Source: a virus
Lineage: Duplodnaviria; Caudoviricetes
DNA: 38,308 nucleotides
Strand: one strand, 5' to 3'
Virus record (IMG/VR): IMGVR_UViG_3300016478_000127
Location: 1-38,308 of that record
This document shows, in pieces, positions 1,220-34,642 of this stretch. A program made the position numbers and the translations under genes. Below the pieces are notes generated by a model. The model saw only the letters and a list, made by a program, of their open reading frames with translations. It ran no database searches and was not told where the DNA came from. Position 1 is the stretch's first letter, and each line of letters opens with the position of its first letter.

Positions 1220-1252
1220 AAAAAATGAGACCACCCCCGAAGGGGTGGCTCA
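1220..1252 (-). terminator. Rho-independent terminator with cUUCGg loop
   Basis: Minus strand TGAGCCACCCC-TTCG-GGGGTGGTCTCA followed by a T run. Confidence 0.85.
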
Positions 1253-1272: not shown

Positions 1273-1431
1273 TCAATTCTTTCTCAAAGACTCAACTGCC
1301 TTCTGTAGTTCATCCCGAGTAAGCAGTGGAAAACGCCTCTTGAGGTAGACCTTCAAAGAAGATTTGTCCTTGCCTGAAGGTAAGCGAATCCACTCTCGGA
1401 TGGCTTTGTCTACCTGCTTAACTGAGTGCAT
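1273..1431 (-). CDS. Small basic hypothetical protein, 52 aa (MHSVKQVDKAIREWIRLPSGKDKSSLKVYLKRRFPLLTRDELQKAVESLRKN)
   Basis: Hand-translated; GGGGA RBS; start overlaps the end of RNAP2 exon 2; fills the gap up to the terminator. Confidence 0.55.
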   Translation of the reverse strand: MHSVKQVDKAIREWIRLPSGKDKSSLKVYLKRRFPLLTRDELQKAVESLRKN

Positions 1432-1602
1432 AGTTGCTTCCCCGGATGTACTTCGACAGGTCGGAACTCAGCTTCTCGTACTTGCCCGGAGACTGGTGCA
1501 GCTGGCTCATGATGTCGGTGAGAATCTCCGAATCAGCCAACTCAGCCAGAATCTCCTTGTACCAGTAGCGAACGGTGTTGCAGTTGTTCGGGTGAGATGC
1601 AA
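1418..1602 (-). CDS. RNA polymerase II subunit 2 (N4 gp16-like), exon 2
   Basis: After splicing reads FASHPNNCNTVRYWYKEILAELADS...YIRGSNYALS*, resembling the C-terminus of N4-like RNAP2; in frame with exon 1 (1051+185 nt = 411 aa + stop). Confidence 0.9.
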
Positions 1603-2581
1603 CATGATCTTAATACTGGCGTTACCCAGTACCTGCTACTTTCCATGGTTCTCATGAAAAGCGTAATACGCATCAGCAGTTTTCCTGGCTTTCATTGCTT
1701 CCTCTACGGTATCGAATACACCTAGGTGTTTCTGAGTTCCGTTGATCGTAATGTAAGCCCTGAATTTGCCTGTAGATTTGATCTGGTTGACTCCATTGAC
1801 CCTACTCACGCTGTTCTTAGATAGTGAGCAATTTTTGATATTTTCCTGATTGGAAACTTCTCTAAGATTGTCCCATCTGTTGTTCAGCTTGTTATGGTCT
1901 TTGTGGTCTATGTACGTAGGGAACCTCCCCGTCATGTACATCCAGATCAGCCTATGGACTAGGTAAGTCGTGCCGAACACGCTTGCCTCTCTGTATCCAT
2001 GTGACGAGCCTACGCTACCAATTTCATCCCCAACCTTTCGTTGGTGCTGCGGTAGCCTGACGGACATGCTTCCCGTCTCGGGATCGTATATGAACAGCTT
2101 TTGTAGAATTTCCTGGGTTAATTCCCGTGGTTCGGCGCTTTTACACGCTTTACACAGATGCCCCAATCTGGATTTTTTAGCATCGTAGTAGTCCGTTGAG
2201 TACTCGGAGCTACACTCTGCACACCTACAAATTGCTTTTCTGCGGCCATCTCTGCGAATTACATCAAGCATGTACATACCTTTCATGGGTTTGGAACATC
2301 CCCCAATTATATACATGTTTGGAGCAGTCTCCAACTTTCGTTGAAGGATGGGACTATATCTTCACCCTCAGAAATCTGGTGGGGTGTAGGGCATTTCGGT
2401 GGGGACTTCCCTCACCTACGGACTTCATCTCCCGGTCTGGGAGGTATGTCCTAGTCTCTGAACCTTCCAAGGGATTCCTCCCGAGGCTTGGCTGCTGATT
2501 GGCATAGGCTTTCGCCCTTAGCTTTCCAGCAATTAACCCTATTGTCCTCTACCCATTACGGGGTAGCGTCGCAAGCTATTT
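1603..2581 (-). mobile_element. Group I self-splicing intron (IA-like), 979 nt, with endonuclease ORF in the P9 region
   Basis: P AAUUGCUGGAAA (2523-2534), Q AAUCAGCAG (2492-2500), R GUUCAGAGACUAG (2451-2463), S AAGAUAUAGUCC (2351-2362); P1 UCGU|A pairs with UGCGA giving U.G at the splice site; terminal G at 1603; GNRA loops in P2, P5 and P9. Confidence 0.93.
1636..2316 (-). CDS. Intron-encoded HNH homing endonuclease with N-terminal Cys cluster and C-terminal AP2-like DNA-binding domain (start may be 2316 or 2286)
   Basis: VHRLIW...IDHKDHNKLNNRWDNLREVSNQEN HNH motif; GVNQIKSTGKFRAYITINGTQKHLGVFDTVEEA AP2-like; CRCAEC...CKAC. Confidence 0.9.
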   Translation of the reverse strand: MYIIGGCSKPMKGMYMLDVIRRDGRRKAICRCAECSSEYSTDYYDAKKSRLGHLCKACKSAEPRELTQEILQKLFIYDPETGSMSVRLPQHQRKVGDEIGSVGSSHGYREASVFGTTYLVHRLIWMYMTGRFPTYIDHKDHNKLNNRWDNLREVSNQENIKNCSLSKNSVSRVNGVNQIKSTGKFRAYITINGTQKHLGVFDTVEEAMKARKTADAYYAFHENHGK

Positions 2582-3632
2582 ACGAGTCATGGATGGTGAC
2601 GACCGGGAATGCCTTGTAGGTACTCATGGTCACGACCATACGCTTCAGAGCAGCTAGCAGATCGTCTGGCAGGGAAGCTACGGTCTCAGCATTCAACCAT
2701 GGCAGGATCGCTGCGGTTGGTTGTTTGCTACGTTCCCACTGCTCAACGAAGTAGTTCACTTCATCGCTGGTGGGTACGGGCTGCTTGGCGTTGAACTTAC
2801 GTTCCATCAGCTCACCAGTCAGCCAGTCCTCGATACCTGCAAGGTTCAAACCCTTGTGGTTACAGCGACGAACCATCTCCCGAAGGATGAAGGCGTCAAT
2901 GCTGTGCACCACGTTGGCCACATTGGACAAGCCCTTCTTGCTGCCTTGGTTCACGTAGTACTCATAGGTGAAGCTGGCATGATCCAGCTCATCTACTTCG
3001 ATACGTGTCTCCTCCCTCTGCATAACCTTGACGCGAGCGTCGAAGCCATCAGGTAGCTTCCAAGCATGAACCAGGGCATAGGGTTGCCATGTATCCAGCA
3101 GCTCTTGCAGCAGCTCATAGGCACCTGGAGCCATCTCCATGCACGCCCGATAGAACGCAGCCAGCTCTTGGGTATCCTCACCGAAGATGATCTTCGGTTG
3201 CTCTTTCGAGCCGTAGTACGAGGTCATCAGGGCTGCCTTAGCATCCTTACGGGTTACGTTGAAATCGTTGCCGAGGATCACCTGCATACGCTGGGTTTGC
3301 TCGGTGTAGGCGTCAGCACGGCGGTTAGGATCGACTAAGCCAGTGGCACGAGCACCGCTCAAACAGCCGGTGATTGCACTCATGATTTGCATGCCTGAGC
3401 ACACAGCATCTAGAGCAACCAGATGGCCAGTCGGAATACCTTTCTGAGCCTTACGGATAGCAGCCACGGACTTCATGTACAGGTAGGCACTTTCTGCCTT
3501 GTCAGTCAGGGATTCCAACTGATCAAGGTTGGTACGGCCCCAACCAATGCGTGCTTCAAATGTCAGCTTGTCCAAACCGAAATGGTTTGCGGCATCAATG
3601 AGGAGGTACTCAAATCCAGTAAAAGTCAGCAT
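2582..3632 (-). CDS. RNA polymerase II subunit 2 (N4 gp16-like), exon 1
   Basis: T7-type motifs: A LDAVCSGMQ, B RKDAKAALMTSYYGS, ANVVHSIDA, ends at motif C TIHDS; ATG 3632 follows AGGAAG. Confidence 0.92.
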
Positions 3633-3657
3633 GTGATTCTTCCTATAAATCAATGGG

Positions 3658-3882
3658 TTAGTCAGGGTATGCAGCCACAAGCAAAAGCACTTGGGCACGG
3701 TAGATTTCAGGGACACCCTCAGCCATGTAGTTGATCCAGTTGCCCGACTTAGGGTCGAGCACCGCCCACACATCGGTCTTGGAGTTGTACATATAGCTGA
3801 GGGGTTCAATAGCACGGCCTTGGTTCATCCATGCGTCACCGATCTCAACTTCTTTTTCAGGTTGGAAGAGAAAGAAGGTCAT
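3658..3882 (-). CDS. Small hypothetical protein, member of the ~80-aa paralogue family
   Basis: ATGA overlap; FFLFQ...W...VPEIYRAQVLLL. Confidence 0.75.
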   Translation of the reverse strand: MTFFLFQPEKEVEIGDAWMNQGRAIEPLSYMYNSKTDVWAVLDPKSGNWINYMAEGVPEIYRAQVLLLVAAYPD

Positions 3883-4250
3883 GGCTGTACATGCTCCACT
3901 GCTTGGAAGACTTCAGCACGAGCCTGAGAGTCTTCTTCTGGTTCCGCTTCAGGAGAACTCCAGAGCGGGTTTTGCATGACACCACGCAGCCACAGAGCTG
4001 TGCTGTGATTCAGGTTGATGCTGACTGGTGGTCTGGCCACACTCAGGGTCTCGCCCTTGGTGATGTACAGCAGCAGTTCACGCAGGCCGAAGCCTTGTTT
4101 CTGGCTGCCTCGGCAAATCCACTTGCCAGTGGTAGGCCACACATCGACATAGCCTACTGGGCCTTCGACGATAAGGTGCATGCCCTCATTCTTCACGGTG
4201 AAACCAATGAGGTGATTGATTAGTGCATCTTGGTACTGTTGGGTATTCAT
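3879..4250 (-). CDS. Hypothetical phage protein
   Basis: AAGGA RBS; operon position between the RNAP subunit genes. Confidence 0.75.
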   Translation of the reverse strand: MNTQQYQDALINHLIGFTVKNEGMHLIVEGPVGYVDVWPTTGKWICRGSQKQGFGLRELLLYITKGETLSVARPPVSINLNHSTALWLRGVMQNPLWSSPEAEPEEDSQARAEVFQAVEHVQP

Positions 4251-4261
4251 GGTGTATTTCC

Positions 4262-4492
4262 TTATAGGTCGTCAATGTTCATCAAGAGCTGGAAAGCCTT
4301 GATTTCGTTGGGAATATCACTGTCGTTGAGGGGTATAAGACTTCCCCATGCGCTGTAGTACCAGACCTTGCTGTTGGTCAGGTACACATAGGCATTGAAG
4401 AGGTCTTCAGGCATCAACTTTCGCCACTGAGGACGGGTGTATTTGCCCTTGAGTACCCCTCCTTGAAACAGAACATAGTGGGGTTCTTGCAT
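4262..4492 (-). CDS. Small hypothetical protein, member of the ~80-aa paralogue family
   Basis: TGATG coupling; YVLFQ...W...IPNEIKAFQLL. Confidence 0.75.
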   Translation of the reverse strand: MQEPHYVLFQGGVLKGKYTRPQWRKLMPEDLFNAYVYLTNSKVWYYSAWGSLIPLNDSDIPNEIKAFQLLMNIDDL

Positions 4493-4752
4493 CAGACACC
4501 TTGATAGAGCAGTAGGTGAAGGGATCGGATGTCAGCAGGTACTTCGATTTCACCAATGATGCTGGTAACTCCTGCGTTCTTGTCATAGCCAATCCATGGT
4601 GAGGTGAACTGGTAACTCGGGGCATAGCACCAATGTTTCTCTGCTCCGGATGTCATGCAGGCATGGATCATGCCGCGATAATCGTCGATCCTGTGCCTAA
4701 GTTTCCCGTTCTCGTCATACCAGTAGAGGTATTCCAGACTGGTGAACATCAC
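4492..4752 (-). CDS. Small hypothetical protein, member of the ~80-aa paralogue family
   Basis: Overlaps the RNAP1 stop; C-terminal VPADIRSLHLLL. Confidence 0.7.
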   Translation of the reverse strand: MMFTSLEYLYWYDENGKLRHRIDDYRGMIHACMTSGAEKHWCYAPSYQFTSPWIGYDKNAGVTSIIGEIEVPADIRSLHLLLYQGV

Positions 4753-24210: not shown

Positions 24211-24247
24211 ATACACTACCTGCCATGCCTTTTTGCTGGAGATACAC

Positions 24248-27200
24248 ATGAGTTTTGACGCTAAAGAGTTCTATGCAAGTTTCAACAACTTTGGTAGTCC
24301 GAAACCCGATGTGACCTCCAGCAAAAAGGAGTCTCTCGCCCTTCGAGCTGATGAAAAGAAAAGCTCCATTCTGGAGAAAGCAGCTCGAATCGAACGCAAC
24401 AAAGACTCGGTTGTGTCTCAACTGGGCCTTGATCCCGATGGTTTCGTTGGTGACATGGTGAACCGTGTTGCAGCTACTGCTGACACGGTACGTGATGTCG
24501 TTAGTGGTATCTCCAAGCTGGAACAAGCAGCTTACAAGGCGGCCACAGGTAAGGAGTTGTCCCAAGAAATTAAGGACAAAATGGCCATACCTGACTTCGA
24601 TAAGTATGTCGCTGAGATGGAGAACGGGGTTAAACCTGCCAGCCATCCCCGAGCAGTAGCTGATGTTGGTATCACTGCACTGAAAGGGGCCATTGGTGTT
24701 CCTGAAAGCGCAGTAGGTGTTGCTGATCTGTTCACTTTTGGTATGGCAGGTAAGAAAGCAGAGGAAGCAGGTTTCCGTTCTCGTGATGCCAAGCAGTTTT
24801 TGGACTCTTTGAAATCTGATGAATTGCGTGCCAGTGAAGCAGAAGTACACGCTGCTGATGGGTTTATGAATACCCTAGAGGCTGCTATAGAAAGGCCCCT
24901 AATGGTGGGTCATGCTATCGGAGAATCTATCCCCGCTATGCTTGCAGGGGGTGTGGTAGGTAAAGGTCTGCAAAAGCTGGGTATGGCCTCCAAACTCGCC
25001 TCTGCTGCGGGTGAAGGTGTAATGATGTCTGGTATGGCTGCCGAGAACATTCGTCAGCAAACCAAAGACGGCGAGATGTCTTTAAAGCAGGTAGGTGATG
25101 CTGCTCTGACAGGTCTGCTGGGGGCCGGTATTGCCCGTGTGGGTAACAAGATTGCTGGCAAAGCCCGTGTTAGTGACATCGAAGAAGCGGCTATGAATGA
25201 GGTATTGCCACCTGCCCAATTAGCAGGGCTGCCTCGTGTAACTGCTGTTGCTGGTATCGAAGGTGCAGAAGAACTAGCACAGTCTGGTGAAGAGCAGATT
25301 CTTCAGAATCACGCTCTGGACAAAGATTTGCTGGAAGGTGTTGGTGATGCTATGGCCATGGGCCTTGTCACCGGTTCGGCTATGGGTGCCGGCTTTGGTA
25401 TGGCCCAACCCTCGGACGAAAATGCCTCAAATAGTGAGGTAATCAAAGACCTCGTTGGTGCTGTGAAAGGTAAGGTTAGTCAGGCTGCTGACGCCCTGAA
25501 CTTGAACCAAAAGGGTAAGGATATTGAGGCTGCGTTTGAGCACGCCAAGACCACTGGTGAAGTAGATCGTCTGGTTGACAGTAAAGACCCTGCCTATGAC
25601 CCGACTGGGGCTATCCGTGCCATGCACGAGTACTCTCAGCGTGATGACGCTGATGCTGAGGGTCTGATTGAGTACGGTGAAGAGTTGGTATCCGGTATGG
25701 AACTCCAGCTGAAACAGCGTATTCAGAATCTGGAAAATTCCCGTGATCTGACTACCCCAGAACACATCAAGGAGCAGGAAGATCAGATTGCCAAGACCAG
25801 GGAAGAAGTCGCCAAAATGAAGATCGCCTTGCAGGACTGGCGAGGCACCAACACGGACATCGAAACACTCGATAGCAGCGTAGAGTTGGCCAACACCCCG
25901 GTAAACGAAATCACCGAGGAAATCGCTCAACCTGTACAAGCTGCTGTGCGAAAGTCACTGACCTTGGCCATGCGTGATTCGTCCAAGATGACTCCAGAGC
26001 AAATGGAAGCCCTGGCCAATAACACTGAGAACTCTCTGGATGATTCTCAGCGTACTTTCCTGTCTCGCTCTGCTGCTGCCCGTCGTGCTGCAACTGAGGC
26101 CAAGACCGTAGAAGGGGTATCCGAAGAAGTCTTCAAAGGTGGTAACGGTAATCTCGGTTTGGAGAACTACCAAGCTGCCTTCAACGATGCATATGCCAAT
26201 GGTGACAACGCTGGCATGCGTACTGCCCTTGCTGGTCTTCAGAAGTTCGCCACTGTTCACCAGAACAAGTTCAACGTGTTCTCTCGGGCGTTCGATGCCA
26301 GTGAACAGGCTGGTGGTACCAAGGTCTACTCGTACCTGCCGAAAGGTAATGGTAGCTGGGTAGCTGCGCCTCGTGGCATGAGCTGGGCTGAGGTGAACAG
26401 CAAAGGTGGGGTGAACATCTCTGCTCAGAACTCAGGCAAGTTGATGGATGCTGTGCGGGCTGAAGTAAAAGCTCTGGAGGCTGGCCTTGAAGCTCTGAAA
26501 GCCAAAGCTGTTGTTCGTACCCCCAAAGCTACTGGCCCAGCCAAAGCCCCTAAAGCTCTTGATCAGGAAGCCCCACAAGCAGCCCCGAAGGTTGCACGTC
26601 CGCAGGCCGAGATTGAGCAGGAGGCTGATGTCCTGCTGGATAACATCAACAGCAAGCTCGACCCGGCAGTGGCTGAAAAGCTCAATCTGAGTCTGGAAGG
26701 CACTTTCAGTCAGCAGCAAGTCAAGGCCATCAAAGCAGCCCTAGAGCCGGCAGACTTCGATGCACTACGTAGTCTCCGTAATGAATACCGTGGCATCGCC
26801 CCCGCGCAGGCGCGGGCTGCGAGTGCCCCGAAGTCTGAGCCGAAGGCGAAGACTGAGGTAGGCACGGAGCAGGCAAGCCAAGCAGCAGAATCACCGAATG
26901 AAGTGTCCCCCAACTTTGATGAAGAAGTGGGGATTGTTGAGGCTGAGATCGAGCAGAAGAAGCGCGAAGAAGCCGAAGCTCGTGAAGCAGAAGAACAGGC
27001 CCGTCGTAGTCAGTCCTTCCTTGAATCCCGTGGGCAAGTACAAAAGCCAACCAAATCGGACTACCTTGGGCAAGCTGCTGGCAAGTTGAAGGCACTGGCT
27101 CACAAAGTTCCGGCTGTGCTGAACCAGAAGAACTACACGTTCGTGAATCTGGTTTCGGCCTACTTCAAGCAAGTGGGTGAACGTCAGGACAGCAATGTGC

Positions 27201-30200
27201 CCCGTCCTTTGGTGGCAGTGAAGAACTTCATGCAGCACCTGAAGGCTCAAGACCTTTCAGTCAACGACTTCATGCCTTACGAAATCACCGAGGCCCAAGC
27301 CCCGTTGGTATCTTTCCTCATGGCTCAGCATGATCGTCTGGCTGAGGTGATCAGCAGTGTGATTCGAGCTGAAGATCGCCAGGAGTGGAAGCACAAGAAC
27401 CCCATCGAGTTCTTCCGTCAGGCAGATGGGTCGTTTGAACAGAACTTTATGACAGCCATGGTAGCTGGTGCTCTGGCTGTGCTGGCAGAAGACGTACACG
27501 CTCCTCGTCTTCAGACTGAAGAATCTGTGGCCAAAATGTTGGGTGCCTCTGCCGATGCCACTGTTCCGCAAGCTACCTTGAAAGCCCTGCGTCCTATGCT
27601 GACTCGACGTACCACCATGGAAAACAAGCTGGGCAAATTCGTAATGGAAGCCTTGGGTCTGAAGGCCAAAAACAAGGATGTACCGGTGGATGAGCAGCAA
27701 CGTCTGCAAGCCCACCTTGGTGCTCACTTGTTTAACGCTTTGGCTCGTACTGGTGTGATCAAGGTTGAGCAGATTGATCTGGGCGATTACTTAGCTATGC
27801 AGGCTCGTAAGGATGCTGAAAGTGACCGCAGCAATGAAGCCTCTAAGGATGCAGAAGATTCTTTGGATGCTTTCCGTAAGGACTACTTTGTACGCATCAA
27901 TCATGAAAGCCCATTCATGGAACACCTGAAGAGCGTATCGAAAGGCTCTGGCGGTGTACTGGCTACCTTGTTTGGTATGGACTCTGGTGAGCAGTTGCCC
28001 CTACTGGAGGCCCCGAAGATTACCCAGAAAGACACCAATGGTGGTAAGCAGACCATCACCAAATCGGTGCGTAAAGCCATGGAGAAAATGGCTTCCCGTC
28101 AGATGACTTTCCGTCCTTCGATGAAGGTGCTGAGTCAGGCCAGCCGTGGTTTCCTCGAAGACATTGCCGGTATCGAGAATGTGGACAATCTGGTCATGCA
28201 CTCCGAGCTGCGTGATGGTGCTCAGGCTGCTAATGACAATCTGCGCCGTGAACTCGATCAGCTCATTGAGCTGTGGGATTTCTTGGGTGCTCTGGGTAAT
28301 CCCTTCCGTAACTTCTATGCCCGTCCGGATCAGTGGAAGAACAGTCGTATTGGCTACGTGGGTTCATGGGCCAACATGCAGACCAGTAAAATCGCACGCT
28401 TCCTTGTGGCTCCTGCTGGCTGGGAGACCACCGTGGTGCCCAGTGGCAAAGTAGGCAAAGTAGGCAAAGGCCAGACCTCGCTGAAAAACTTCAAGCTGCG
28501 TGTGCTGGAAGGCTTGGGAGCCAAGACCGACAGTAAGAGTGACTACGACACCCTGAAATCCTTCGATGAAATCGTATCTGCTGACCACATCAAAGCTGCT
28601 GTGAAAGTGCTGCAACGAGTGGTTGATACTGATCTCAAGATGACCACTGAAGAAGAAAACATTGTGGCCAACGCCACCAAGAAAGTGGGCAACAAGCTGC
28701 ATGGGTTCGAGGCGTTGTGGGCACTGGCTCAGTACGAGAATGCCAAAATGTATGACCCAATTTCGGGTCAGCACCTTCTGAAGCCATTCACTACCATGGT
28801 ATCTGCCGAGATCGACGGTAAGACCAACGGCCCAATGCTGAGTATGTGGTTGCTGGGTGTGATCGACTCCACTTTTGCTGCCATGGGGGGCTTCTTCACG
28901 CATGCAAGTCAGGTACGTGGTTTTGGTCAATGGAAGCCTGGTAACTATGACTTGTATGAGCGTACCTCGGATACCCTGCTCAAGCGCCTGAAGCAGATGG
29001 ATATTCGTCCAGAAGTTGTGGACTCCCTCTGGCGTCTGATCGGTTCCCCACTGGATAAGCATGGCCGTATCGTAAAAGCAGGACGTGATCTGGTTAAGAA
29101 CCCGCTGACCACTCTCATCTACGGTTCCGGTCTGGATAACACCGTGGACAAGATGACTGATGTGTTCATGGAAAACATCTACGCCCAAGTCGCCAAGATT
29201 GCTCAGGGTAAGAAGTATGTTGAAGGTGACTTCACCATTGAACAGCAGTTCGAAATGTTCCAAAAAGACCTGCAACAGTTCACTGGCCGTAAGGCTATGC
29301 CTTTCCCAACCGATATTCAGGAAGCCCTAAATACCCCGTTGTCAGAAGATTATGTGACCGATCTGCGTACACAGTTTGCTGAAACCATTGGTGAAGCCGT
29401 TAAGTCCACCATCAATACCGACTTTGAAGGGTACATGACGGCCCGTAAAAAGATGGTGCGCCAGTCCAATGCCACTTGGCTGATGTACAACGAGGTTCGT
29501 GAGAAACTGCTGTGGGACTATTCCCAGTTCCTTATGGATGAAGGTGTACTGCCTTTCCAAGTAGTTACCGGACTCACCAATGAGGTGGAGAAGTACGACC
29601 GTTACAATATGCCGGTGTACAAGAAAGGAAAGATTCGTCAGCCTCTCCGTGCTCTGACTGAGAAAGAGCAGGAAGAAGCTCTGGCTTTGATCAAGCACAT
29701 GGAGCCTCGAATCAACACTGCCCTGTCTCGTCGTGATGGTGATCTGGAATCGGGCATCTATGTGGGCAAGAACAAGCTCAAGTCTTCTTCCAAACCTGAG
29801 CTGAGTACGGATGTTAAGAGCAATGGGTTCGGTGCCTTGAACAGTAAAGGGGAACCGCTGAAACCTAGCCGTGAATCCCGACCCATTGTGCGTCAGGAGA
29901 GTCCACCCGGCGTATCGGTTATGGCCAACGGTGTGCAATCCACTGACGGTAACACCATCGTTGAAGTGCTGGCTCACCTGAATGCTATTGGTGTGCATGA
30001 CGCCATCCTGACGGCTCTGCATGATGCTGCTGAAGCAGGTCAGATGATGAACCAGCAAGTGATGGAATTGATCCTGAATCACTCGTTGCCTCGTGAAAGC
30101 TATGAAGCCCTGGCTCGTACCATGATCGGTTACGCCGAGTACATGCGTCAGAACCCGAATAGCATGAGCAAAGAGTCTCTCCGTAACCTGCTGAACTCTC

Positions 30201-33200
30201 AAAAGCAGGGGCGTAATCGGATGCCCTCTTTCGCTGAACTGGTATCTCAAGCCGCCCGTTTTGCCTATGAATCAGACTTCAACCGTCTGGATCAGTTGAG
30301 CAAGATGGCTGTGGTGGATCAGTACACCCTTGAATCGGGCATCTTCGATGTACCCAACAGCTTCAACAATCTGGCAGCCAAGATGCGGGATGAACTCAAG
30401 CTGACCATCGACCCGGCCTTGATGGCTGCGGCTATGGAAATGGACAAAGCCCTGTTTGGTGACAAGGTTACTGGGGCTAAAACTACTGCCCCGAAAGCCC
30501 AACGCACCAGCCAGAAGGCTGAGTTTGATCTGGATGCTGTTCTGCAAACCCCGGGTCTGACTGCCGAAGTGGTGATCGACAAGCTGCTCAACAATATCGG
30601 TAACCCTCAAGAGGGTGACGTTTTTGGTCAGCTGTACCGTGAAATCCTGAAGCGTGGTCTGCGTCAGCTGAAAGGTCTGCCGGTGAACTACGTTACTGAC
30701 GAGTCGCAGATTCCAAAAGAAGCACAAGGAGCCTACGGCTGGTATCACGTTGACGAAGATGGCAACGCCAGCATTGGTATTCGTGGCTCCAACCTTGCTG
30801 GTTCAGGTATTACCACTGAGCTGATGGTGCATGAAATCCTGCACGCTCTGGTAGCTACCATTATCGAACAGGCTGAAAAAGGCATCGGAACTCCTGAAGT
30901 ACTCAAGGCTGTGGCTGAACTGGAAGAAATGCGGGAGTTCTTGAAACCCCGTATGCCTCAGTTCGGTGAAGCTCTGAAGAATGTGCAGGAGTTTGTGGCT
31001 TGGGGTATGACTAACCCAGCTTTCCAGAAAGCTCTGGTGGCCATTCCGCACACTGATAAGCGTGCTCCCAACTTGCTGAACAAGGCCCAGCAGTTCTTCT
31101 CGACTATTGCCAAGATCGTGTTTGGCAAGAAAGCCGAGTCGATGAACACCATGTTTACCACCTTCATGTCCCGGGTGGCTGTAATCATGGGGGATGCTGA
31201 GACCAACCCTCAGCAACCCCTCCCGGGTACTCAGACTATGGCAGCCCAGCAATGGAATGCGGTGGCCTTGTTTGAAGGTCTTGGTTCGCTGGGTAATGGT
31301 TACACCTCTTCAGCCATGCAAGAGCGTGTAGCCGGTCTGATGTCCTCTGTGGTTGATGCCGTGGGTGGCCCGTTCCAGTCCTTCTACCAACAGGCTGTAG
31401 CTGGTGCTCAATCACCTATTGCTGTCATGGCCACTGCACAGGCCAATGGCCTGCTGCCGAATAGCGGTGATTTGCGTGCTAGTGGCTTTGCTCTGGGTGA
31501 TCAGCAAGCCTTCGCCATTGAGATGCTGACCGAATCCATTCACGAAGTTCAACGTGACACCACACATGAGGCTGAAAAGCAGCTGCTCAAGCTGTTCAAG
31601 GAGACCTCTCAGAAGGTGACTCCGGCTGATCTGGGTGGTCAGACTCAATGGGATGCCCTGTTTGGCGCCAACGCCATCCAACCTGATGGTAAGCACCTGG
31701 CTCGCTTTGCTGCTATGGCCCTTGCTTACCCCCCTCTGGCCAGCAAGATGGGCTTCACTACTCAAGAAGTAGTGCAAGAAGATACGACCCTGTATGGCCG
31801 TATGCTGGCACTCTTTGAGAAGCTGATGAATCTGCTAGCCAAGGCCACTCATAAAGCATATGCCGGCCAGCGTGCTGATCTGAAGCTGAATACCATCACA
31901 GAACGGCTGGTAGCACTGGAGGCCAAGTATCAGGCACGCCTACAACCTAACCGGTTCGATGATGTGATGGAGCTGCTGGAAGACAAGAGTGAACAGCTCG
32001 AAGAGGGTGTGCGTAACCTGCTGAAGTCGGGTTTTGATAAAATGATCTCCTCCAATGTGAAGGGCATCAAACAGCTGGGCACCATCGGTAACGTGGTGGC
32101 CGAGCAGCGTGTTGGAGAAGTCCTAAACAGCGTAGAGAAAACCTACAACCGTATGTCCTCTGGGCAGATGGGTCTGATGGGTTCTTTGTTCGATGAACTA
32201 CGTGGTACCCGTGCTAGCAATGTGATGGCCCGTGCTCTGCTGGTAGCTACCAAAGTCCGTGAGAAGCTGCGTCAAGACATCCAACGCGATTTCACTCGCG
32301 TCATGTCTGAGAGCTTTGCTGTAGAGCTGACTCAGAACGAAGAAAAGTTCATCACCACGATCCTGCTGCGTAACGACGTACAGTCTTTGTTGGGGCCGAT
32401 GACTCTGGCTGAAATCCAGTCCTTGCTGGCTAACCCAAGCCGACTGACTGCTGAGTTCAATCGTCGGGCAGCCAACCTGCCTCCCCAGCTGAGCCAGTAT
32501 TTCCTGAACCAGATCGACTACATGGGCTTCATGTTGGCCACTGGTTCGGATAAAGGCCCGAACACGGTGCGAAACATTGAGAACCTTGCTCGCCTGAGTG
32601 GTACTGCCCAAGCCGATACCTTGAGCGAATCTGAAGTGGCTGCATTGATTCCGGAGCTGGATGTACTGGTAACCCTGAAAGCTCTGGAGTACTCGAACGA
32701 AGGTGATCGCCGTTCGATGGCCCGACTACTGGCTAATGAGACTGCCCGGACTGATGGGGGTAATGGCATCAAGGCTGTGCTGCTGATGCACCGTGAGCTG
32801 CTGAAGCAGGCCAAGGAGCGCGCCTTTGCTGGGACTGAGCGTCTGATGGTGAAAGGCTACGTGCCTGAAATCCACAACCCGAACATTGAATTGGTGGCTG
32901 TTGATCGTGCTGATGTAGCTACCAGGATTGCTGCTGGGTACAAGAAACTGTATGACCTGCCTATGGATGATTCGGATGTTTACGGTCGTCCAAAGACTCT
33001 AATGGTCGTTGAGAAGATGGCTGTACGTCGCCTGTCCGGCACCCTGTCCCTGACCAGCATGAAGCATCAAGGTAGTACCATTCATTCCGGCATTGAGCTG
33101 TTCGACTTCAGTGGTGAGAACGGCTACAGCATCCACGCCAACAAGAAAACGGCCAAAAAGCGTCAGCAGGAGATTGCTGCCCTGTTCACCCGTCCACATG

Positions 33201-34642
33201 GCAAGAATCTGGTTGAGGACAAGACCACTCGGATGACCCCGGTAATGAATGCCAAGGGGGAAGTGGTGAACTACCGCTACATGATGGATCACCAAGGACG
33301 TGACGATCATCTGGAGCGTAACAACCACTTTGGCCAAGTGCTCGGGACTATGGCAAGCCAGACCTTCGATAAGGCTACCTCTGCTGATCACAATAGCCGA
33401 GTAATTGATGCCCTGCATCAGCAGTGGACTCTGGAGCAAAGCACCAATCCAGAGGCATTTATCATGGTTGGCCCGGACAGTGCTGATGCCAGCCTGCGTG
33501 AGCGTTACGTGGAAATCCCTTACGAGACTCGCAAACTGATCGAGTCGGTATGGGGTGGCCCGAACATGATGGTGCGTCGTGATCTGGTAGACCTGCACTT
33601 TGGTTACCACAAAGCCTCACTCACTGATCTGCTGACTGACAATGGCCGGTACAACGGCGTACTGAAAAACTTCTTCTTATGGCTGGCCAAGGACGTGTTC
33701 AACATCGGTGACCGGGGGCTGCGTCGAATCCTGAAGGCTGAAAACATTTTTCAGGCGGTGAACCAGGAGATCAAAGACTTCTTCGTTGTGAAGTCCGGTG
33801 TAACGACCTTCTGGAACATCGTGAGTAACATGAGCTTGTTAAAGCTACATGGGGTATCGCTGAAGGAGATTGTGCGCTATCACCGTGTCGCCCTGAAGGG
33901 TGCTCGTGATTGGCAGAGAGATGACTCGGAGCTGCGTCGCCTAACGGCTATGCGTGACTCAGGGTACATCGTAGGCAGCCTTCAGGATTTGGATCAGCAG
34001 ATCGCAATTCTGGAAGACCAGTTGGCACGGAACCCAGTCCGTGAAGTGATGGCGTTGGGCATGATGCCCACCATTGCAGAAGACATGGACAGCATGGAAG
34101 ACCCTTACTCTTACAAGAGCTATGCTGCTAAAAAGACGGAAAAATACACTCAGTATGTGCCCAAGTTTGTAAAACAAGGGGCCAAGTGGGTGTACATGAC
34201 TCATGACACCCAGCTGTATCAGATCATGCAGCAAGGCACTCAGTTAAGTGACTTCGTAGCTCGATACACTCTGTTCCAGCACTTGCAAACTCGTCGTAAG
34301 AATCCGTTGAGTATGGCTGAAGCAGCTGTTGAAGCGATTGATTCGTTCATCAACTACGACTTGCCATCGAATCGCTGGTTGCAATACGCCAACGACATGG
34401 GGATCGTGCGATTCACCAAGTACTATCTGCGGATTCAATCTGTACTGATGAAGCTATACCAGCAGAATCCGGCCCGGGCCATGTTCCTTGCCACTATCGA
34501 GAACCTGTTTGATGGGATGCAAACAGTGATGGACTCTACTCTGTGGAACCGGATTGGTTCCCCACTAGAAGGTGGGCCATTCGACGCCATCGAAGCTCTG
34601 GAAAGTGGGCTGATGGCCCGGGCACTCGGCAAGGTGTTCTAA
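24248..34642 (+). CDS. Virion-encapsidated RNA polymerase (N4 gp50-like), ~3460 aa
   Basis: Giant ORF; motif A EIDGKTNGP, motif B RDLVKNPLTTLIYGSG, motif C GVHDA; GGAG RBS before ATG 24248. Confidence 0.95.
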   Translation: MSFDAKEFYASFNNFGSPKPDVTSSKKESLALRADEKKSSILEKAARIERNKDSVVSQLGLDPDGFVGDMVNRVAATADTVRDVVSGISKLEQAAYKAATGKELSQEIKDKMAIPDFDKYVAEMENGVKPASHPRAVADVGITALKGAIGVPESAVGVADLFTFGMAGKKAEEAGFRSRDAKQFLDSLKSDELRASEAEVHAADGFMNTLEAAIERPLMVGHAIGESIPAMLAGGVVGKGLQKLGMASKLASAAGEGVMMSGMAAENIRQQTKDGEMSLKQVGDAALTGLLGAGIARVGNKIAGKARVSDIEEAAMNEVLPPAQLAGLPRVTAVAGIEGAEELAQSGEEQILQNHALDKDLLEGVGDAMAMGLVTGSAMGAGFGMAQPSDENASNSEVIKDLVGAVKGKVSQAADALNLNQKGKDIEAAFEHAKTTGEVDRLVDSKDPAYDPTGAIRAMHEYSQRDDADAEGLIEYGEELVSGMELQLKQRIQNLENSRDLTTPEHIKEQEDQIAKTREEVAKMKIALQDWRGTNTDIETLDSSVELANTPVNEITEEIAQPVQAAVRKSLTLAMRDSSKMTPEQMEALANNTENSLDDSQRTFLSRSAAARRAATEAKTVEGVSEEVFKGGNGNLGLENYQAAFNDAYANGDNAGMRTALAGLQKFATVHQNKFNVFSRAFDASEQAGGTKVYSYLPKGNGSWVAAPRGMSWAEVNSKGGVNISAQNSGKLMDAVRAEVKALEAGLEALKAKAVVRTPKATGPAKAPKALDQEAPQAAPKVARPQAEIEQEADVLLDNINSKLDPAVAEKLNLSLEGTFSQQQVKAIKAALEPADFDALRSLRNEYRGIAPAQARAASAPKSEPKAKTEVGTEQASQAAESPNEVSPNFDEEVGIVEAEIEQKKREEAEAREAEEQARRSQSFLESRGQVQKPTKSDYLGQAAGKLKALAHKVPAVLNQKNYTFVNLVSAYFKQVGERQDSNVPRPLVAVKNFMQHLKAQDLSVNDFMPYEITEAQAPLVSFLMAQHDRLAEVISSVIRAEDRQEWKHKNPIEFFRQADGSFEQNFMTAMVAGALAVLAEDVHAPRLQTEESVAKMLGASADATVPQATLKALRPMLTRRTTMENKLGKFVMEALGLKAKNKDVPVDEQQRLQAHLGAHLFNALARTGVIKVEQIDLGDYLAMQARKDAESDRSNEASKDAEDSLDAFRKDYFVRINHESPFMEHLKSVSKGSGGVLATLFGMDSGEQLPLLEAPKITQKDTNGGKQTITKSVRKAMEKMASRQMTFRPSMKVLSQASRGFLEDIAGIENVDNLVMHSELRDGAQAANDNLRRELDQLIELWDFLGALGNPFRNFYARPDQWKNSRIGYVGSWANMQTSKIARFLVAPAGWETTVVPSGKVGKVGKGQTSLKNFKLRVLEGLGAKTDSKSDYDTLKSFDEIVSADHIKAAVKVLQRVVDTDLKMTTEEENIVANATKKVGNKLHGFEALWALAQYENAKMYDPISGQHLLKPFTTMVSAEIDGKTNGPMLSMWLLGVIDSTFAAMGGFFTHASQVRGFGQWKPGNYDLYERTSDTLLKRLKQMDIRPEVVDSLWRLIGSPLDKHGRIVKAGRDLVKNPLTTLIYGSGLDNTVDKMTDVFMENIYAQVAKIAQGKKYVEGDFTIEQQFEMFQKDLQQFTGRKAMPFPTDIQEALNTPLSEDYVTDLRTQFAETIGEAVKSTINTDFEGYMTARKKMVRQSNATWLMYNEVREKLLWDYSQFLMDEGVLPFQVVTGLTNEVEKYDRYNMPVYKKGKIRQPLRALTEKEQEEALALIKHMEPRINTALSRRDGDLESGIYVGKNKLKSSSKPELSTDVKSNGFGALNSKGEPLKPSRESRPIVRQESPPGVSVMANGVQSTDGNTIVEVLAHLNAIGVHDAILTALHDAAEAGQMMNQQVMELILNHSLPRESYEALARTMIGYAEYMRQNPNSMSKESLRNLLNSQKQGRNRMPSFAELVSQAARFAYESDFNRLDQLSKMAVVDQYTLESGIFDVPNSFNNLAAKMRDELKLTIDPALMAAAMEMDKALFGDKVTGAKTTAPKAQRTSQKAEFDLDAVLQTPGLTAEVVIDKLLNNIGNPQEGDVFGQLYREILKRGLRQLKGLPVNYVTDESQIPKEAQGAYGWYHVDEDGNASIGIRGSNLAGSGITTELMVHEILHALVATIIEQAEKGIGTPEVLKAVAELEEMREFLKPRMPQFGEALKNVQEFVAWGMTNPAFQKALVAIPHTDKRAPNLLNKAQQFFSTIAKIVFGKKAESMNTMFTTFMSRVAVIMGDAETNPQQPLPGTQTMAAQQWNAVALFEGLGSLGNGYTSSAMQERVAGLMSSVVDAVGGPFQSFYQQAVAGAQSPIAVMATAQANGLLPNSGDLRASGFALGDQQAFAIEMLTESIHEVQRDTTHEAEKQLLKLFKETSQKVTPADLGGQTQWDALFGANAIQPDGKHLARFAAMALAYPPLASKMGFTTQEVVQEDTTLYGRMLALFEKLMNLLAKATHKAYAGQRADLKLNTITERLVALEAKYQARLQPNRFDDVMELLEDKSEQLEEGVRNLLKSGFDKMISSNVKGIKQLGTIGNVVAEQRVGEVLNSVEKTYNRMSSGQMGLMGSLFDELRGTRASNVMARALLVATKVREKLRQDIQRDFTRVMSESFAVELTQNEEKFITTILLRNDVQSLLGPMTLAEIQSLLANPSRLTAEFNRRAANLPPQLSQYFLNQIDYMGFMLATGSDKGPNTVRNIENLARLSGTAQADTLSESEVAALIPELDVLVTLKALEYSNEGDRRSMARLLANETARTDGGNGIKAVLLMHRELLKQAKERAFAGTERLMVKGYVPEIHNPNIELVAVDRADVATRIAAGYKKLYDLPMDDSDVYGRPKTLMVVEKMAVRRLSGTLSLTSMKHQGSTIHSGIELFDFSGENGYSIHANKKTAKKRQQEIAALFTRPHGKNLVEDKTTRMTPVMNAKGEVVNYRYMMDHQGRDDHLERNNHFGQVLGTMASQTFDKATSADHNSRVIDALHQQWTLEQSTNPEAFIMVGPDSADASLRERYVEIPYETRKLIESVWGGPNMMVRRDLVDLHFGYHKASLTDLLTDNGRYNGVLKNFFLWLAKDVFNIGDRGLRRILKAENIFQAVNQEIKDFFVVKSGVTTFWNIVSNMSLLKLHGVSLKEIVRYHRVALKGARDWQRDDSELRRLTAMRDSGYIVGSLQDLDQQIAILEDQLARNPVREVMALGMMPTIAEDMDSMEDPYSYKSYAAKKTEKYTQYVPKFVKQGAKWVYMTHDTQLYQIMQQGTQLSDFVARYTLFQHLQTRRKNPLSMAEAAVEAIDSFINYDLPSNRWLQYANDMGIVRFTKYYLRIQSVLMKLYQQNPARAMFLATIENLFDGMQTVMDSTLWNRIGSPLEGGPFDAIEALESGLMARALGKVF

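Follow-up and report, generated by a model that had tools for sequence, protein, structure and literature searches.

In a phage assigned to Schitoviridae, catalytic motif C of the RNAP2 gene holds a group I intron that encodes an HNH endonuclease

Analysis of a 38,308-nt stretch of phage DNA (here called the window; estimated completeness, 52%) revealed that its gene for the N4-type RNA polymerase subunit RNAP2 is interrupted in motif C by a 979-nt group I intron, which likely splices itself from the early transcript to leave the message for a 411-aa subunit and likely homes into intron-less alleles. We put the probability of this reading at about 0.9. The intron boundaries, the core helices, and an endonuclease gene in the loop closed by P9.1 are read directly in the sequence. 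Because the window encodes a 3469-aa virion RNA polymerase (24233-34642), N4-type terminase, portal, capsid, and SSB proteins, and a separate RNAP1, its gene content places the source phage in the Schitoviridae (N4-like). Cultured phages were all distant from it, with a top identity of 69% for the capsid and about 50% for RNAP2. The features considered are as follows.

5645-4749, minus strand: RNAP1 gene, partner subunit (N4 gp15-like; PHROG 2166, E 1.7e-96)
3632-2582, minus strand: RNAP2 exon 1, codons 1-350 and the first base of Phe351, carrying motif A, motif B, and H-D-S from motif C
2581-1603, minus strand: group I intron, 979 nt, with the 5' site after U and a final base G
2581-2329, minus strand: ribozyme core P1-P9 (guide strand 2574-2569; P3 2541-2536/2392-2387; P4 2531-2526/2498-2493; P7 2458-2452 with 2356-2351; P9 2346-2329)
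2451-2398, minus strand: helices P7.1 and P7.2 between P7 and P3, a subgroup IA-type feature
2317-2269, minus strand: predicted hairpin burying the endonuclease start codon, with a 10-bp stem (2317-2308 with 2278-2269)
2311-2306, minus strand: consensus -10 hexamer lying in the hairpin's 5' arm, 34 nt ahead of the endonuclease start and marking a candidate late promoter (host sigma-70; consensus match only)
2271-1636, minus strand: HNH endonuclease gene, 211 aa, with N-terminal CxxC..CxxC, HNH_3, and an AP2-like C-terminus
1637-1603, minus strand: 3' structured tail, with the P9.1 3' strand over the endonuclease stop, hairpin P9.2 (1632-1613), and the terminal G at 1603
1602-1418, minus strand: RNAP2 exon 2, the remainder of Phe351 through Ser411 and the stop, its first start codon being codon 22
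1230-1249, minus strand: terminator-like hairpin downstream of the RNAP2 gene (consensus match only)

Motifs A, B, and C are placed at the residues that we take to form them in RNAP2. An early gene at 7586-7242 (minus strand) bears the PHROG 6271 label "toxin" and is weakly similar to LIT1 ORF12; presumably it resembles the N4 gp2/Drc-type cofactor of RNAPII, and "toxin" would then mean toxicity to the bacterial host. The motif names follow the T7 family scheme given in PMC4496689. RNAP1 and RNAP2 are set apart by four small genes (window 3632-4749), a spaced layout of the kind described in PMC5418858.

The reading frame opening at 3632 terminates at TIHDS-TAA, exon 1 ending in CAT GAC TCG T, and excision of 2581-1603 yields a 411-aa frame containing IHDSFASHPNN...SNYALS. 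This reconstruction, proposed in a preliminary description of the DNA, was confirmed by an intron-less 411-aa protein (P0006, whose DNA is locus L114), with which the spliced product shares 93.9% identity and zero gaps. P0006 in turn matches N4 RNAPII gp16 (6DT7 chain B) along its length (E 1.9e-52), so that the host gene had been correctly named as N4-type RNAP2; full-length gp16 homology, motifs A, B, and C, a separate RNAP1 gene, and the giant virion RNAP were all found. On PHROG 2051, exon 1 aligns to positions 1-340 and exon 2 to 343-401; exon 2 used as a query returned 75 longer proteins. Close relatives read IHDSFASH or IHDSFAAH across the junction. When 32 frame-keeping candidates were scored with a profile built from intact RNAP2 proteins, the junction at 2582/1602, which is that of the preliminary description, ranked highest. 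Two alternative 3' sites, 1609 and 1600, keep the frame but alter the length and lose the Phe, and were rejected. The earlier placement of the intron in motif C stands with a refinement, as the cut falls inside the Phe codon of H-D-S-F and the catalytic aspartate remains in exon 1. Read unspliced, the protein terminates at residue 350, and its final 61 residues are absent.

The class of the intron, also suggested earlier, was upheld by a covariance-model search in which Rfam RF00028 matched 2591-2329 with 83.9 bits (E 4.2e-20; gathering score, 50), the sole Rfam match in the 38-kb window. In the predicted P1 (6 bp), the guide at 2574-2569 pairs with four bases at the end of the exon and two of the intron, and the expected U.G pair stands at the splice site; the register of P1 is the same in four of the five same-site introns folded and shifted in that of locus L014. 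Also present are the core P3-P9 with its P3/P7 pseudoknot, the G-binding site in P7, the terminal G, and, between P7 and P3, the IA-like helices; P10 is weak (about two pairs). When the P2-P9 structure with P7.1/P7.2 was drawn on the window sequence and counted on 15 RNAP2-intron cores, 91.7% of 985 cells were paired, and 54 of 70 pairs showed two-sided changes. None of 500 shuffles reached these values, and slid partners paired in 32-43%, although the rows are related and a structure taken from one aligned sequence is favored over slid controls. P4, P6, and P7 were paired in 100%, P7 being nearly invariant and hence contributing little covariation. Extra helices P7.1/P7.2 and a short P5 without P5abc define subgroup IA2, and both features were found. 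In PMC3984707, P7.1 and P7.2 are named merely as classifying features, and the subgroup is described as heterogeneous in PMC11878797. Judged by sequence and predicted fold, the element is a group I intron interrupting RNAP2, and it is probably a mobile, active one that belongs to the phage IA2 type and encodes a nuclease resembling I-HmuI.

The endonuclease gene, which the preliminary description had omitted, makes up about two thirds of the intron. Its product matches HNH_3 (Pfam PF13392) with E 1.4e-16, its core aligns to I-HmuI (1U3E; E 2.8e-5) with the D-H..N..N residues intact, its N-terminus holds two CxxC pairs, and its AP2 match is weak and below the cut-off. Translation most likely starts at 2271, since this is where homologues begin and since, of nine amino-acid changes in the related locus L118, three lie in the five codons upstream; a start at 2286 is possible. 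Between the window and L118, 18 synonymous and 6 nonsynonymous codon changes occur in 211 codons, and this synonymous excess indicates that the gene is under purifying selection. The product is likely a homing nuclease, and such a gene would explain the presence of the intron.

Moreover, the distribution of the intron points to mobility. L118 carries the same 979-nt intron with 36 differences (96% identical), five of them core changes that mostly preserve pairing, inside an RNAP2 that is 60% identical at the protein level. In a tree of 22 RNAP2 rows, in which several branches are long and the deep order is unresolved, the window groups with intron-less L114, L115, and L116, and L118 groups with intron-less L005, L006, and L127, with support of 100/100 for both groups; each of ZC08, Moonfish, pYD6-A, and L014 has an intron-less sister allele. 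Because a near-identical intron sits in a diverged RNAP2 of another well-supported clade, the comparison suggests lateral homing, and the patchy distribution with lateral transfer at a fixed site is that of a homing endonuclease. The survey of intron-plus and intron-minus alleles called for earlier thus found both, each intron-plus allele grouping with intron-less ones. Near-identical intron contigs alongside more diverged exons were also present in public runs X3, X4, X5, and X8, and intron-less junction contigs in the best-matching run, X1, as well as in X4 and X5. A long co-conversion tract in L118, suspected from BLAST extension, was rejected, as L118 exon 2 is 96-97% identical to its own clade and about 70% to the window.

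Two further observations concern exchange between alleles. The His three codons into exon 2 is CAC in both intron-plus alleles and CAT in eight of nine intron-less ones (window 1602-1588 compared with L114-L116, L005-L007, L009, L121, and L127), which may reflect a short co-converted tract or resistance to the nuclease. The ZC08 intron occupies a site three bases upstream. Identity between the two introns is 90-94% over P3-P7.1 (92% for window 2543-2415 against L027:3001-3130) and 34% over P1-P2 and P8, with nucleases 37.5% identical; ribozymes at neighboring sites therefore appear, from these alignments, to have swapped parts as a mosaic.

Three other explanations of the interrupted gene were weighed. 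As the record comes from a metagenome and its run contains a mixture of related strains, the fragment could owe its RNAP2 gene to a false join in assembly with an unrelated intron-bearing gene. However, a contig of X1 matches 1471-2886 without any difference, and single contigs of X3 and X5 cross both boundaries; since these contigs span the interruption, it is no assembly artefact. The independent contig L118 and the cultured phages MIF8 and pYD6-A, with an intron at the identical site, likewise stand against a chimera, which the independent contigs refute. It might also be argued that a free-standing endonuclease split RNAP2 and that the halves are translated apart and assemble as a complex, as for Aeh1 nrdA/mobE. 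Public records do list the pieces as separate polymerase genes, N4 RNAPII is itself already a split T7-type enzyme (PMC4496689), and a similar argument appears in the ZC08 paper (PMC5418858). Yet a complete, covarying ribozyme lies between the halves, whereas the Aeh1 arrangement has an independent downstream start and no ribozyme; three codons ahead of exon 2 the frame holds a stop, and exon 2 itself offers no start before codon 22; the cut lies within a codon whose conserved Phe is restored only by an excision after U and after G. We consider two separately translated halves extremely improbable.

The intron or its endonuclease could also be dead, the gene being a pseudogene or the element merely inherited. 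Loss of the endonuclease does occur, as shown by introns lacking an ORF, one of 299 nt at this very site in L014 and others elsewhere (L123 and the first intron of pYD6-A). In the window, however, the ribozyme core is intact in its residues, the nuclease gene has an open frame and a synonymous excess, near-identical copies reside in diverged exons, and no second RNAP2 gene was found among the large ORFs of a contig representing about half a genome. A dead element is accordingly very improbable, and a spliced, mobile intron is the reading that we retain.

From its class, the intron would be removed by a guanosine bound at P7 attacking the U.G-marked 5' site, after which the terminal G would direct exon joining and restore H-D-S-F. 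N4 RNAPII is an early product required for middle transcription (PMC4496689), so middle genes would depend on this splicing. In eight public runs, all consisting of assembled contigs, no exon-joined product at 2582/1602 with the letters of the window was found; the junction-spanning contigs carry other letters and are thus intron-less DNA alleles. The sole run recorded as RNA (X20; share, 0.06) covered the ribozyme core with one contig of 200 nt and left the exons uncovered, too little to bear on splicing. In a mixed infection, the I-HmuI-like nuclease would quite probably nick the motif C region of an intron-less RNAP2, and repair would copy the intron over.

By analogy with T4 I-TevI, the hairpin and the -10-like hexamer suggest delayed expression of the endonuclease. 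On the early transcript, the hairpin would hide the start codon, so that ribosomes stay clear of the ribozyme as it folds; a promoter in the hairpin 5' arm would, late in infection, give a shorter, translatable RNA. We favor these two steps somewhat. For I-TevI, a start-burying hairpin is combined with an internal late promoter, and loss of the hairpin lowers splicing (PMC2988022), while N4 late genes are transcribed by the sigma-70 RNAP of the host, together with N4SSB (PMC4496689). Two L118 changes in the hairpin arm retain pairing. Among eight motif C introns with the same nuclease family, the leaders have diverged (mostly 6-26 of 56 bases alike) and the start region is folded over in each. 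When the RNA was trimmed so that 27 nt preceded the AUG, the opening cost fell in all eight, from 6.9-10.2 to 1.9-7.0 kcal/mol; the shortening would by itself be expected to give some drop. In six of seven lineages, a -10-like hexamer has its end 32-34 nt upstream of the AUG (L118 was omitted as near-identical, and L096 is the lineage without the hexamer); the shuffle probability of 5e-6 overstates the case because the distance window was picked after viewing the data. By itself, the window hairpin is not unusual (z -1.23; 22 of 200 shuffles were equally good), and a promoter scan found three sites against 4.3 by chance, with poor -35 matches. A search for an I-TevI-like operator near the nuclease start gave a best match of 12/20, the commonest value in 100 shuffles.

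Split RNAP2 genes occur beyond the window. Among 21 viral loci found with exon 1, four have a split RNAP2 (two being near-duplicates), and among 43 metagenome loci, which overlap the viral set in part, 32 have a whole gene and 3 a split one, the other 8 being truncated where the contig ends. A pattern scan of viral contigs for same-site introns returned one locus, L036, a group I intron outside RNAP2. As 69 of 77 viral loci with the P4-P5 pattern of the window ribozyme lack an RNAP2 match (8 have one), the ribozyme family, as sampled by this pattern, resides mostly in genes other than RNAP2. For 20 of 22 junctions in split RNAP2 genes, the cut after U and after G scored best or within 0.4 score units of the best; L004 scored poorly (locus cut) but equals L003. 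The 21 resolved junctions, from which L066 was excluded, fall into nine sites, all in conserved catalytic motifs:

Motif C, three sites: between H and D; within the residue after HD (ZC08, ZQ2, Moonfish); within Phe (window, L118, MIF8, pYD6-A, L014)
A-N-V-x-H-S, two sites
Motif B, three sites (JWAlpha, HN05, Vibrio 1.261.O, L096, L154)
Directly after motif A, one site (VL1)

The junctions of ZC08, Moonfish, and VL1 align with intron-less ZC03, ECBP1, and LIT1, respectively, at equal length, with zero gaps and 90-99% identity, so that cultured intron-plus/intron-minus pairs exist. Rfam scores exceed the cut-off in MIF8, ZQ2, Moonfish, pYD6-A (twice), ZC08, and VL1; in JWAlpha, HN05, 1.261.O, and XC38, the ORF lies within the core and the Rfam match is only partial. 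Two RNAP2 introns apiece were found in pYD6-A (L001:1894-2185 and 2478-3448) and L096 (915-1889 and 2508-3383). The ORFs of the JWAlpha and HN05 motif B introns (L029:1713-2273 and L030:1728-2291) and of the VL1 motif A intron (L028:1750-2418) had no Pfam match above the cut-off, and by these searches other sites in RNAP2 hold nucleases of different kinds. VBP32, JSF3, Kpn16-P2, and 1.026.O, suspected of split genes from short BLAST cover, have intact RNAP2 genes without an intron. In Pseudomonas phage PJNP053 (OR941788.1; L161:301-2262), GFP follows RNAP2 residue 186 in frame (Pfam GFP, E 8.7e-9); this insert indicates an engineered phage or assembly contamination, not an intein or intron.

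Single-subunit-family RNA polymerases thus join the host genes of phage group I introns, with a self-splicing step that would stand upstream of the entire transcription cascade. Phages credited with two or three RNAP2 genes would have one spliced gene, a recurring annotation error that leaves related introns unrecognized in many public genomes; as the preliminary description foresaw, an intron feature was absent from all 10 records examined of cultured relatives with a split gene. Its statement that no such intron had been described in a Schitoviridae RNAP went uncontradicted, as our search of openly available papers found none naming an intron in N4-type RNAP2, although genome-wide tables in supplements or databases may already list them. 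The interruption as such has nevertheless been published, and this arrangement is a common one. In the relevant passages, PMC5418858 reports an HNH gene inserted in ZC08 RNAP2 and calls no intron, PMC3915230 reports an interrupted RNAP2 in JWAlpha/JWDelta and asks whether it is functional, PMC4837373 and PMC9729221 count RNAP2 pieces as separate genes, and PMC4496689 notes gp16 split in two in two genomes, while in PMC5746245 and PMC3670811 group I introns are reported or suspected for Schitoviridae genes other than RNAP2. RNAP2 therefore appears to be unreported as an intron host gene, the element type and mechanism being well known, and one spliced gene would answer the question raised in PMC3915230. 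A broader and rather unlikely proposal is that the catalytic motifs of Schitoviridae RNAP2 are an unrecognized intron hotspot (at least nine sites) and also that the motif C introns serve as weapons against intron-less co-infecting relatives. If so, a late-released HNH nuclease would nick the RNAP2 of rivals and break the transcription relay at the early-to-middle step, and interference competition of the PhiPA3 type would extend to small phages without a nucleus. To our knowledge, N4-like phages do not form phage nuclei.

Several known systems resemble this arrangement. The I-HmuI and I-BasI introns, in DNA polymerase genes of the Bacillus phages SPO1 and Bastille, likewise combine an HNH_3 nuclease with a conserved polymerase motif, whereas the target in the window is an RNA polymerase and the nuclease has a zinc-binding N-terminus and an AP2-like C-terminus. 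PhiI/W31 introns sit in T7-like DNA polymerase genes. The T4 td, nrdB, and nrdD (sunY) introns, which are of subgroup IA2, carry I-TevI, I-TevII, as well as I-TevIII, and, like the window, have the endonuclease ORF in a peripheral loop with its 3' end reaching into the intron structure; their hosts serve nucleotide metabolism, in contrast to a transcription enzyme. The start-burying hairpin and internal late promoter are shared as well (PMC2988022), the promoter of the window being a candidate that the sigma-70 RNAP of the host would read together with N4SSB (PMC4496689), and an autorepressor-like operator was not found near its nuclease start. PhiPA3 gp210 is likewise an HNH protein in a group I intron just past conserved aspartates of a phage RNAP gene (PMC11620839), but that gene encodes a multisubunit RNAP beta subunit of a nucleus-forming jumbo phage, and its killing effect is tied there to separate phage nuclei (PMC11620839). 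Within the Schitoviridae, the N4-like Vibrio phage pVa5 has a group I intron with an HNH gene in td (PMC5746245), its host gene being thymidylate synthase. Closest are five phages of other lineages whose records, like the account of ZC08 in PMC5418858, note an inserted HNH gene rather than an intron: MIF8 (Erwinia) and pYD6-A (Pseudoalteromonas), with an RNAP2 intron at the site of the window, and ZC08 (Pseudomonas), ZQ2 (Escherichia), and Moonfish (Shigella), with one 3 nt upstream. All share with the window the Rfam match (74-94 bits), the endonuclease family (37.5-54% identity), the position of the ORF, and the start hairpin.
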